The notes below the pieces were generated by a model that had not been told where the DNA came from, did no database searches, and worked only from the letters and a program-made list of their open reading frames with translations. From the NCBI GenBank assembly GCA_963752475.1, contig CAVVYR010000004.1, forward strand, positions 64,001 through 128,000: a stretch of DNA of 64,000 bases, read 5' to 3'. Of this stretch, positions 47,313-50,160 are shown piece after piece. Position 1 is the stretch's first letter, and each line of letters opens with the position of its first letter. This stretch comes from an uncultured Chloroflexia bacterium (lineage in GTDB: Bacteria > Chloroflexota > Limnocylindria > Limnocylindrales > CSP1-4). The position numbers were made by a program, and so were the translations under genes.

Positions 47313-48779
47313 GTGACCGAAGCGCCGAAGTACACGAACCGCCTCATCCACGAGACCAGCCCCTACCTGCTCCAACACGCTCACAACCCGGTGAACTGGT
47401 ATCCGTGGGGCGAGGAGGCGCTGGCTCGGGCCAAGGAGCTCGACCAGCCCATCTTCCTCAGCATCGGCTACGCCGCCTGTCATTGGTGCCACGTGATGGA
47501 GCGCGAGTCGTTCGAGGACGAGGACACCGCTGCCGAGCTCAACGCCGCCTTCGTGCCGGTGAAGGTCGACCGCGAGGAGCGGCCCGACCTCGACAGCATC
47601 TACATGGACGCGCTGCAGGCGCTCACCGGCCAAGGCGGCTGGCCCATGAGCATGTTCCTTACGCCTGAAGGTCTCCCCTTCTACGGCGGTACCTACTTCC
47701 CCGACAAGCCCCGTCACGGCATGCCCGCCTTCCGCGTGCTCCTCGCTCGCATCGCCGACGTCTGGGACGACCGACGCGAGTGGGTCGAGTCGACCGCGAC
47801 GAAGCTGGCCGACCGCGTCCGAGAGGGCCAGGACGCCCCTGCCCGACTCCTCGCGGCCCTCTCCGAGCTCCCCGAGGTGGACCCGGCCCACCGCCTCGAC
47901 GACGCCACCAAGGGCATGCTCAAGTCGTTCGATCCTGTGAACGGCGGCTGGGGCGAAGCGCCGAAGTTCCCGCAGGCGATGTCGATCGAGTACCTCCTGC
48001 GCGAACACCTGCGGACCGGCGCCAAGGAGCCCCGACTGGTGGCTGAACGCACGCTCGACGCCATGGCCGCGGGCGGTATCTATGACCACCTCGGTGGCGG
48101 CTTCGCGCGCTACTCCACGGACGCCGCCTGGCTCGTGCCGCACTTCGAGAAGATGCTCTACGACAACGCCCTGCTCGCCCGTGCCTACGCCCATGCCGCA
48201 GAGCTCAGCGGTGACGCGAGCTATGGCTACTACGCGCGCGAAACGCTCGACTTCGTAGCCCACGAGATGCGCAACCCTCCCGGCGGTGCGTTCGCAGCCT
48301 CCCTCGACGCCGACACCGAAGGGATCGAGGGCGCGACGTACACCTGGGACGCCACCGAGGTGCGCGAGCTCCTGGGCGATGCTGCACCGCTGTTCGAGGA
48401 TGCCTACGGTGTGACCGACGGAGGTAACTGGGAGGGCCGCACGATCCTCAACCGTGTTCGCGGCGACACCGACCTCGCGGTCGAGCACGAACGGCCTCGC
48501 GATGAGATCGCCGAGGAGCTGGCCGAGGCGCGGACCCAGCTGCTTCGAGCCCGCGACGAACGACCGCAGCCCGCGCGCGATGACAAGGTGCTGACCAGTT
48601 GGAACGGGCTGATGATCGCCGCCTTCGCCGACGCCGGCCAAGCCCTCGCTGAGCCCTCCTTCGTGCGTATCGCGACCGAAGCGGCCGACTTCATCCTCGA
48701 CCAGCTCCGAGCGCCGGGTCCGGACGCAGAGACCGAGCCAGAGCACACGCCAGAGCCAGAGCCGGAGCACGAGGCGTGA
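47313..48779 (+). CDS. YyaL/SSP411 (SPATA20) family protein, N-terminal part
   Basis: [59 protein letters not shown]. Confidence 0.9.
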
Positions 48780-49471
48780 CCCAGGCCACCGAGCTCATCG
48801 TCTCGATCCACGTGCCCAAGACCGGCGGCGAGACCTTCCGCGACATCCTCGAAGCGCTCACCGAAGGCCACCTGCAGCGAGACTACGGTGACCGGCCGCT
48901 GGCGCCCATGACCATCCGGCAGCGCATCCGCCTGGCCACGGCCCGGCCGCAGCTGGAGCCCGGCACGCGCGCGGTCCACGGTCACTTCATCGCCACCAAG
49001 TACTGGCGGCGCTACCCCGAGGCCCGCTACATGGCCTGGTTCCGCGAGCCGATCGAGCGCCTGGCCTCGCACTACCACTACTGGAAGCGCAAGCCCGATC
49101 GCAAGAACCCGACCTGCCGGAAGCTCATCGAAGAGGATCTCTCACTGTCGGGCTTCGCGGGGCTGCCCGAGATGCGTGACGTGCAGGCTCGCTTCCTCGG
49201 CGAGGTCCCGCCCGAGCGCCTGGCCTTCGTCGGCATCACCGAGCGCTACGGCGAATCGATCGACCTCTTCCGCCGCGCCTTCTACCCGGCCATGCCGTCG
49301 ACCGCGGAGCACGTCAACGCCAACCCCGAGCGCGATGGTGAGCGCTACCAGCTCGACCCCGCCGTCCGCGGCGAGATCGAACGACTCAACGCCGCCGATA
49401 CGAAGCTCTACGAGGCGGCGCTGGTCCGCTTCGAGACGCTCCTCGCGACGCATCCGGAGCCCAGCGCATGA
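48776..49471 (+). CDS. sulfotransferase family (Sulfotransfer_2-like) protein
   Basis: 5'-[12 protein letters not shown]; 3'-[29 protein letters not shown]. Confidence 0.85.
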
Positions 49472-50160
49472 GCCGCCGAACGCTGCGTTCCTGGAAAGAC
49501 GGTCGGGCCCAGCACGACGGCACGCTGGAGGACTACGCCAACCTCGCCGAGGGGTTGCTCACGCTCTATCAGACCACGTTCGAGGAGCGCTTCTTCACCG
49601 CTGCGAGGGAGCTGGCAGACGCCATCCTCGACCACTTCGAAGCTCCCGAAGGCGGCTTCTTCGACACGGCCGACGACGCCGAGGAGTTGATGGCCCGACC
49701 GCGCAACCTGCAGGACAACGCGGTGCCCTCGGGTGGCGCCATGGCCACGACGGTGCTGCTGAAGCTGGCCGCCTTCACCGGCGACGCTCGCTATCGCGAT
49801 GCGGCCGAACGTGCCCTCGCGCCGATCGTCGGCATCGCCGCCCAGCACCCCACCGGCTTCGCCCAGTGGCTCCAGGCCTACCAGCTCGCGAGCAGTCCCA
49901 TCGACGAGATCGCCATCGTCGGTGATCCCGCCGCGGAGGACACCGGGGCCCTGCTCGCGATGGCCCGTGATGGCTTCCGGCCGAACCAGGTCATCGCCGT
50001 CTCAGCGGACCCCGCCGGCAGCGCCGTCCCGCTGCTCCACGACCGCCTCATGCTCGACGGTGCCGCCACCGCCTACCTCTGCCGCGGCTTCGCCTGCCAG
50101 CGCCCCACGACCGACCCGACCGAGCTGGCCAGCCAACTCAAGGCGGCTCGCTCGTCGTAG
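49468..50160 (+). CDS. YyaL/SSP411 family protein, C-terminal part
   Basis: LRSWKDG..GTLEDYA, GGFFDT, QDNAVPSG, AYLCRGFACQRP. Confidence 0.88.
   Translation: MSRRTLRSWKDGRAQHDGTLEDYANLAEGLLTLYQTTFEERFFTAARELADAILDHFEAPEGGFFDTADDAEELMARPRNLQDNAVPSGGAMATTVLLKLAAFTGDARYRDAAERALAPIVGIAAQHPTGFAQWLQAYQLASSPIDEIAIVGDPAAEDTGALLAMARDGFRPNQVIAVSADPAGSAVPLLHDRLMLDGAATAYLCRGFACQRPTTDPTELASQLKAARSS

Follow-up and report, generated by a model that had tools for sequence, protein, structure and literature searches.

In a stretch of 64,000 nucleotides (nt) from an uncultured Chloroflexota bacterium (assembly GCA_963752475.1, contig CAVVYR010000004.1, positions 64,001 to 128,000; hereafter the window), the gene encoding a protein of the YyaL/DUF255/SPATA20 family, yyaL, is cut in two by a complete gene encoding a sulfotransferase-like protein (ST). 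Three consecutive open reading frames (ORFs) of the + strand encode, successively, the N-half of YyaL, the ST and the C-half of YyaL. This fission is real, conserved and selected, and represents a variant of "genes in pieces". The data presented below establish the anatomy of the locus, its conservation and the insertion site, and they show that each of the three ORFs evolves under purifying selection and that the affinities of the ST are foreign. We consider it probable that the locus arose by insertional gene fission, in which a horizontally acquired ST gene split yyaL, the two YyaL chains reassemble and the ST is an independent passenger.

Results

Anatomy of the split locus

The locus comprises the following features.

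47313..48779, + strand: yyaL N-half, with the DUF255 thioredoxin-like domain and its CHWC, barrel helices 1-8 of 12 and an acidic tail (PF03190, 7tkv_A, helix map)
48717..48776, + strand: acidic Pro/Glu-rich C-terminal tail of the N-half (tails of six species set beside intact junctions)
48764..48767, + strand: GGAG, Shine-Dalgarno-like, 8 nt upstream of the ST start codon (read from the sequence)
48776..48779, + strand: GTGA, overlap of the ST start codon and the N-half stop codon (ORF list and raw sequence, gaggcGTGAccc)
48776..49471, + strand: ST, inserted 231-aa sulfotransferase-like gene of the 3'-phosphoadenosine 5'-phosphosulfate (PAPS) type, GTG start (motifs, AlphaFold2 (AF2) model, Foldseek, tree)
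49456..49459, + strand: GGAG, 8 nt upstream of the C-half start codon (read from the sequence)
49468..49471, + strand: ATGA, overlap of the C-half start codon and the ST stop codon, gcgcATGAgcc (ORF list and raw sequence)
49468..50160, + strand: yyaL C-half, 230 aa, ATG start, with 3 added codons (MS+1), an RLLRSWKDG-type beta-hairpin, the last 4 barrel helices and a C-terminal alpha/beta subdomain with two conserved Cys
50190..50858, + strand: gene of a HAD-family hydrolase (PF13419, E 1e-31), 29 nt downstream of the C-half

The four genes follow one another in the order yyaL-N, ST, yyaL-C and HAD on one strand, gapless up to the 29-nt spacer ahead of the HAD gene. The longest ORF of the N-half opens at an ATG at 47166; the GTG at 47313 is the probable start because the orthologues, as well as the gene call of the database protein P0121 in a relative, begin at the equivalent codon. 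Encoded by two ORFs with a 693-nt gene between them, the protein is here a split member of its family and not a single polypeptide chain. By comparison of the GC content of the ST (0.691) with that of the two halves (0.684 and 0.701) and of the window (0.682), no compositional signature of a foreign origin is left in the ST. The three-ORF layout, the GTGA and ATGA overlaps and the GGAG ahead of the C-half had been proposed in a first-pass annotation of this DNA; the ORF list and the raw sequence confirm them and reveal a GGAG ahead of the ST as well.

Position of the cut

The N-half carries the PF03190/DUF255 domain (E 8.4e-76, 253.9 bits against a Pfam cut-off of 27). On the crystal chain 7tkv_A, an intact protein of 668 aa, the N-half covers residues 7-442 (E 3e-124) and the C-half residues 462-659 (E 1.6e-5). 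The stretch C56-H-W-C59-H is unchanged in 25 of the 25 aligned N-parts; a CxxC-type motif in the thioredoxin domain is what we take to be defining for the YyaL/DUF255 family. The intact proteins of this type, such as PDB 7tkv (the uncharacterised protein Bab1_2064) and 3ira, likewise associate a thioredoxin-like DUF255 domain bearing the CxxC with an (alpha/alpha)6 barrel but, unlike the present case, are single chains.

The exact place of the break was obtained from the non-split loci of the genus, 21 out of 24 of which read ...AADF(I/V)Lxx(L/M)RTxDG RL(L/R)RSWKDG... in one frame. The remaining three escaped the search pattern and two of them (G062 and G028) were seen to be continuous on inspection, which brings the continuous loci to 23. 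In the split genomes, the N-half retains ...AADFILxxLRAP followed by a variable acidic tail, and the C-half opens with M-(S/T)-x followed by R(L/V/M)(L/H)RSWKDG. The insertion falls on the codon boundary ...DG|RLL..., and relative to the intact members of the genus no residue is missing at the cut. In the AlphaFold model of the intact G035 orthologue (pLDDT 79.4, pTM 0.85; TM 0.77-0.82 to 7tkv), the cut falls between G464 and R465 in the loop 459-465, after the helix 442-458 and before the strands 466-471 and 474-478 (pLDDT 84-92 in this region). As counted in this model, the N-half comprises the thioredoxin domain and 8 of the 12 barrel helices, and the C-half the remaining 4 helices, together with the hairpin ahead of them and the C-terminal alpha/beta subdomain. 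The earlier proposal that the two segments are normally adjacent across a short loop is correct, and the question it had raised of residues lost at the break is answered by a cut lying in a short loop with nothing removed.

The tail of the N-half is missing from intact orthologues, and both its length (about 8 to 40 residues) and its sequence differ between species; the tails are homologous across both split subclades, with the pattern AP(DGG)EPxAEAEA.... An essential role of this tail in the interaction between the halves is doubtful because it is poorly conserved and of low complexity, and because the C-half gains only 3 residues.

Distribution of the split in the genus and in metagenomes

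The window's own assembly (G000) is a Chloroflexota metagenome-assembled genome (MAG), 88.8% complete with 5.8% contamination and made of 38 contigs. The split locus is its one PF03190 locus, and no intact second copy of yyaL was found in this 88.8% complete assembly. A search of 60 relatives with the ST retrieved close orthologues (67-82% identity) in 4 of the 36 other same-genus genomes and in none of the 24 genomes of a second family, no ST orthologue being found in the 32 other same-genus genomes searched. Each same-genus ST orthologue sits between a yyaL N-half and a yyaL C-half, followed by the same HAD hydrolase gene. Using the C-half as query across the genus, a match was obtained in 47 of 49 species genomes. 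The split is present in six of the 49 (G000, G005, G067, G013, G033 and G009), which are the six best C-half matches (77-100% identity); the other 41 of the 47 matching genomes are without split. In the six split genomes the match begins at query residue 1-2, within open frames of ~270 aa; in the other genomes of the genus it begins at residue 4, mostly in frames of ~700 aa or more, and the shorter frames in G022, G001, G002, G036, G003, G008 and G014 accompany frame breaks elsewhere in the gene or contig ends.

The junctions themselves are conserved, with an ATGA/GTGA overlap between N-half and ST in 5 of the 6 split species genomes and an ATGA overlap between ST and C-half in all 6. Furthermore, the metagenome contigs with a close relative of the ST place it in the split context as far as they extend (8 of 8: four N-ST-C, three N-ST to the contig end and one ST-C), and their frame offsets fit 4-nt overlaps at every N/ST junction (7 of 7) and every ST/C junction (5 of 5). 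The ST/C junction is bridged by Logan contigs of unrelated runs (X2 records 21 and 22; X3 record 31, 0 differences), and the N/ST junction by X3 record 27, in which the tail is 6 nt shorter. The HAD hydrolase gene lies downstream of yyaL in 29 of 30 loci of the genus, split or intact; the yyaL-HAD pairing is ancestral and older than the insertion.

The quality of the assemblies has to be considered alongside. In G000, essential genes are broken by indel errors, SecA matching in three frames (C8:409426-410741) and AlaS in two (C14:51118-52882), and these errors probably stem from long-read assembly. Frame breaks in RpoB are likewise seen in G005, G067, G031 and G065.

Selection on the three ORFs

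Pairwise dN/dS ratios were calculated by the Nei-Gojobori method (NG86). Between split genomes they range over 0.09-0.22 for the N-half (a range that omits G033, where the contig end leaves no more than 88 residues of the N-half, tail included), 0.12-0.33 for the ST and 0.14-0.27 for the C-half; dS is ~0.5-0.9 between most species and probably near saturation. The corresponding regions of intact pairs give 0.115-0.24 (N) and 0.13-0.21 (C). At the shortest distances, the closest split pair, G005-G067 (N 0.090, ST 0.119, C 0.176), matches the closest intact pair, G029-G027 (N 0.115, C 0.206). Furthermore, 20 intact orthologues define 171 invariant columns in the N-half and 56 in the C-half, of which 164 and 53, respectively, are conserved throughout the split genomes. 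Purifying selection acts on all three ORFs, and neither half displays relaxed constraint.

Nature of the inserted sulfotransferase

A search of 5.8 billion proteins yielded 153 homologues of the ST. An alignment of 14 diverse homologues shows the motifs PKTGG, HGH and R-x-P-x-E-R-L-x-S unchanged in all 14, the invariant residues of the ST including P14, K15, T16 and G18 as well as R90, P92, E94, R95, L96 and S98. We take PKTGG and R-x-P-x-E-R-L-x-S to be the 5'-phosphosulfate-binding (5'-PSB) and 3'-phosphate-binding (3'-PB) motifs for PAPS, and HGH to be the catalytic His region. The AF2 model of the ST (pLDDT 87.5, pTM 0.86) has 14 Foldseek matches in the PDB at E <= 0.001; all the top matches listed are sulfotransferases, the best one being a heparan sulfate 2-O-sulfotransferase (E 6e-6, TMq 0.56). 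By this model and this alignment, the ST has the fold and the motifs of a PAPS sulfotransferase. Its fold is common with the heparan sulfate 2-O/6-O sulfotransferases (PDB 4ndz, 3f5f, 5t03), to which sequence matches are weak, and the PKTGG-type loop and the R-x-P-x-x-R-x-x-S stretch of that type are invariant in the alignment of the ST family. Unlike these enzymes, with which it shares ~15% identity, the ST is much smaller (231 aa), bacterial and cytoplasmic-looking. As an adenosine 5'-phosphosulfate (APS) kinase gene (PF01583) is present in G000 at C1:102757-103203, PAPS can be made in this organism. The same genome contains three more distant sulfotransferase-like ORFs (27-32% identity to the ST), two in tandem at C20:30572-31605 and one at C1:68953-69510.

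Origin of the inserted sulfotransferase

The ST family is represented by at least 460 loci in the GTDB species genomes. Among the best 80 of these loci, 76 are without yyaL within 4 kb, and the only 4 with adjoining yyaL halves are Chloroflexota loci. A tree of 82 STs unites the six Chloroflexota copies in a single clade (support 99), nested among homologues from Pseudomonadota, Verrucomicrobiota and Myxococcota, and the inner branching of this clade, (G009,G033)|(G000,G013,(G005,G067)), mirrors that of the yyaL tree. The single ST clade, its branching in step with yyaL, its foreign nesting and the homologous tails of the N-halves together indicate one horizontal acquisition and one insertion. 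The nearest ST outside the Chloroflexota is carried by a Myxococcota MAG contig (L050, positions 1-2773; 57% identity), where its start codon overlaps (GTGA) the stop codon of an upstream ORF that belongs to no Pfam family, with a sulfatase gene (PF00884, E 1e-44) behind it; this locus shows the kind of operon that could be the source of the insert. The neighbours of ST homologues, which include a secretin, a PAS histidine kinase, a methyltransferase, the sulfatase of L050 and several ORFs of no family, were looked at as a clue to the substrate, and this clue was dropped as no consistent theme emerged.

An intact relative in or next to the split clade

The yyaL tree was built with 35 of the 47 genomes having a match, the 12 without a fetched locus being left out. 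It groups the six split genomes and one genome with an intact yyaL, G006, in a clade (100/99), within which G006 associates with G033 and G009 (98/96). A concatenate of SecA, GyrA and AlaS (2894 columns from 12 genomes) again unites these seven genomes (96/97), with G006 in the G000 subclade (92/98), and the split genomes are monophyletic in only 4% of its bootstrap trees. Approximately unbiased (AU) tests on the yyaL, SecA and concatenate trees do not reject monophyly of the split genomes (p = 0.175, 0.305 and 0.32, respectively). RpoB and RpoC were not found in G006, and SecA alone does not fix its placement.

G006 is a fragmented bin of 520 contigs, 64% complete, that might mix two populations; its yyaL is intact and no ST match was obtained in it. 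At its junction (L045, C61:1-4000, near locus positions 589-672 on the - strand; AEMTAAAKDGEGLRVQRSWKDG), the loop is 5 codons longer than in the other intact genes, and the extra Leu stands exactly at the third, insert-derived codon of the split C-halves (MTL|RVH in G009). The odds are roughly even that G006 represents a secondary re-fusion, by in-frame deletion of the ST; a sister lineage that branched off before the insertion fits as well, the trees not deciding between the two.

Fused forms and likeness of the junctions

In G013 (L131 / L006), the N-half and the ST are read in one 719-aa frame. This fusion depends on a single additional base within a run of C in the tail, without which the tail would stop at ...EADA* and form a GTGA overlap as in the other genomes. 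The fusion may be genuine or may reflect an assembly indel or homopolymer error. P0121 (714 aa), the sole fused protein in the large database, was rejected as not genuine, a frame change replacing the last helix of the N-half with junk. We did not count these fusions as a sign of a physical link because these MAGs show frame breaks in essential genes.

The two junctions of the window (48755-48790 and 49447-49482) are alike, each presenting CCGGAGC, 7 nt and RTGA. Across the G000 subclade they have GC(A/G)TGAGCC in common; in G005, G067 and G013 they share GC(A/G)TGAGCC(TG) and both ORFs start with Met-Ser, the likeness in G067 (17 of 24 positions identical) being reached by none of 2464 control windows; G033 and G009 display no excess similarity between their junctions. 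This likeness could be a duplication from the insertion event or a convergence of Shine-Dalgarno, start and stop signals. A duplicated junction was not retained as a scar of the mechanism, much of the likeness being forced by the Shine-Dalgarno sequence, the start codon and the TGA.

Discussion

Insertional fission of yyaL would have proceeded as follows. A fragment of ~750 nt containing a complete ST gene, acquired horizontally, would have landed in yyaL of the ancestor of a subclade within one Chloroflexota genus, supplying the N-half with a new stop codon behind a short acidic tail and the C-half with a new start codon (M-S/T-x). One mRNA would be produced from the yyaL promoter, and each downstream ORF would be started by termination-reinitiation at the 4-nt overlap behind its GGAG. 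The two YyaL chains would then reassemble non-covalently into a thioredoxin plus (alpha/alpha)6 protein keeping the ancestral function, a step that we infer only from the selection acting on both halves. Concerning the ST, it is most likely an independent PAPS-dependent enzyme making use of the yyaL expression signals, and not a partner of YyaL. A complex prediction with the N-half, the C-half and the ST, in which the ST was the scored partner and the N/C interface was unscored, gave a score of 0.00, which speaks neither for nor against binding.

Several observations weigh against this account or weaken parts of it. The score of the ST against Pfam Sulfotransfer_2 (PF03567) is 18.2 bits, below the cut-off of 22, and NCBIfam gives no match for it; for these two reasons the ST represents a divergent, uncurated subfamily of sulfotransferases. 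Owing to the indel errors in G000, single-base details of the window are not guaranteed. A scan for promoters and terminators found nothing in the region, such a scan being uninformative for this phylum. The only signal in RNA libraries comes from an oligo-dT sediment library (X19), with contigs matching 48564-48714 (end of the N-half) and 48811-49024 (inside the ST) with 6-7 differences; they may correspond to a relative that is present or expressed, or to DNA carry-over, and were not counted as expression. Finally, the long retention under selection of a tightly coupled ST in all species of the split clade would also fit a functional link, and both proteins have carbohydrate-enzyme-like folds, in view of the structural likeness of the ST to heparan sulfate sulfotransferases and of the YyaL barrel to AGE-type isomerases including YihS.

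Three other explanations of the locus were weighed against insertional fission with an independent ST. The structure could be an assembly or binning artefact, either a chimeric join or a misassembled insertion, as G000 is a MAG with 5.8% contamination and indel errors. However, the same structure is found in six species genomes and in eight metagenome contigs from other assemblies, contigs of unrelated runs bridge both junctions and the ST phylogeny co-diverges with that of yyaL, so that the chance of an artefact is negligible and this reading is refuted for practical purposes. The first-pass annotation had already argued against an indel error. The recurrence of the three-gene order in five other species genomes and in every one of the metagenome contigs puts it well outside chance and bears out a fission that is neither an indel nor a chimera. 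The combination that would have told against it, an arrangement unique to this assembly with an intact copy elsewhere, was seen in neither of its parts, the 88.8% complete G000 possessing a single PF03190 locus. It is also very improbable that the insertion inactivated yyaL and that the halves are decaying leftovers or have taken on new, separate roles. In favour of such remnants, the split genomes have in common a small number of changes in columns that are invariant elsewhere (D->N, V->M, R->L, G->P), and no compensating second copy was found, so that a loss of function would have to be tolerated. Against them, intact orthologues of equal divergence give the same dN/dS as the two halves, most of the invariant columns are retained, and neither half contains a stop or a frame break in five or six species separated by a dS of ~0.5-0.9. 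On this point, the comparison of dN/dS suggested earlier as a check for relaxed selection came out in favour of constrained halves.

The remaining explanation is a functional three-part module, in which the ST and the two YyaL chains share a sulfated, carbohydrate-like substrate or a complex, and in which the insertion persisted by tying their expression together. The conserved overlap coupling, the purifying selection on the ST, the carbohydrate sulfotransferases among its best structural matches and the one-frame reading of N-half and ST in G013 would be in line with it, as would the structural match of the YyaL barrel to AGE-type sugar isomerases, including the sulfoquinovose isomerase YihS, at ~12% identity. 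Nevertheless, we regard such a module as unlikely: the ST homologues of other phyla have no yyaL alongside and heterogeneous neighbours, most yyaL genes of the genus are unsplit, the 32 other same-genus genomes searched gave no ST orthologue, G006 does with an intact yyaL and no ST match, and the two fused forms come down to a one-base difference in a C-run (G013) and to a frameshift that loses the last helix of the N-half (P0121). A bolder reading, to which we attach little credence, is that the ST and the split YyaL work as one unit on a sulfated sugar-like molecule, with an enzyme akin to carbohydrate sulfotransferases embedded in a barrel protein akin to AGE-type and sulfoquinovose isomerases. 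Independently of this, the fission may be reversible, in which case G006 would have deleted the ST in frame with a scar of 3-5 codons. As to the interpretation given in the first-pass annotation, its core stands, since a real fission by an inserted gene with selected halves is what we find; its suggestion that the ST points to a sulfated substrate of YyaL is not supported, in view of the 76 yyaL-free loci, the 41 genomes without split and the intact G006.

Insertional fission with an independent ST has counterparts among known systems. The closest is found in the Aeromonas phage Aeh1, where the homing-endonuclease gene mobE splits nrdA and the two parts reportedly come together as a working enzyme with neither RNA nor protein splicing (Crona et al., NAR 2010, PMC3045599). 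Both cases involve a free-standing gene that cuts a conserved enzyme gene into two ORFs and new C- and N-terminal tails at the insertion. However, the insert is here a metabolic-type sulfotransferase with no nuclease domain in Pfam rather than a mobile endonuclease, it sits in a bacterial chromosome rather than in a phage, and the assembly of the halves is deduced from selection only. In the fractured genes with split inteins and homing endonucleases (Dassa et al., NAR 2009, PMC2677866), an inserted ORF is described as breaking up a conserved gene, which similarly leaves two separately encoded halves. These genes differ by their intein halves, whereas at the yyaL break Pfam finds no intein or endonuclease domain; the YyaL halves thus cannot be spliced and must associate non-covalently. 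In some Metazoa, mitochondrial cox2 is described as having undergone an insertional fission into complementary, still functional genes (PMC5374615), where again an insertion splits a conserved gene, but in an organellar genome, for a membrane protein and without a translationally coupled inserted enzyme gene.

The yyaL locus provides a natural experiment in which a conserved two-domain protein, cut at a defined loop by an unrelated acquired enzyme gene, is kept in pieces under selection across several species. Insertional gene fission is thereby not confined to selfish endonucleases in phages, and stop/start overlaps with a hijacked host gene would allow the expression of an incoming gene that has no promoter of its own. 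The YyaL/SPATA20 barrel would tolerate a split into 8+4 helices, which is of use for split-protein engineering and for structure-function work. For annotation pipelines, it follows that two such "fragments" should not be flagged as pseudogenes. If G006 is a reversal, the fission and the re-fusion of one gene would be documented within a single genus. The role of YyaL/SPATA20 proteins is described as one that "remains unclear" (PMC7084401), and our literature searches returned no functional study of a bacterial YyaL; if the ST and the split YyaL were to form a functional unit, this would be the first biochemical lead for the family.

Neighbouring genes in the window

Upstream of yyaL, a divergent gene on the - strand (46202-47287) encodes a likely secreted beta-propeller protein of the SMP-30/gluconolactonase/NHL type (PF08450, E 4e-13). 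Its probable start is an internal codon, which leaves an upstream region of ~110 nt in common with yyaL. Further downstream on the - strand, positions 52688-55939 encode a regulator of 1083 aa that combines an AAA_16 ATPase domain at the N-terminus with a LuxR/GerE helix-turn-helix at the C-terminus. Between this regulator and the HAD hydrolase gene, at 51621-52632 on the - strand, lie two neighbouring ORFs (160 and 273 aa) without Pfam family, each ending in ...CTVPGHYYTM..., presumably a cupredoxin-like copper-site pattern, and containing long Pro/Glu/Ala-rich repeats (EPAEPEEPAEP...). These repeats resemble in composition the acidic tail of the yyaL N-half, and such tails may simply mirror the sequence bias of the genome.

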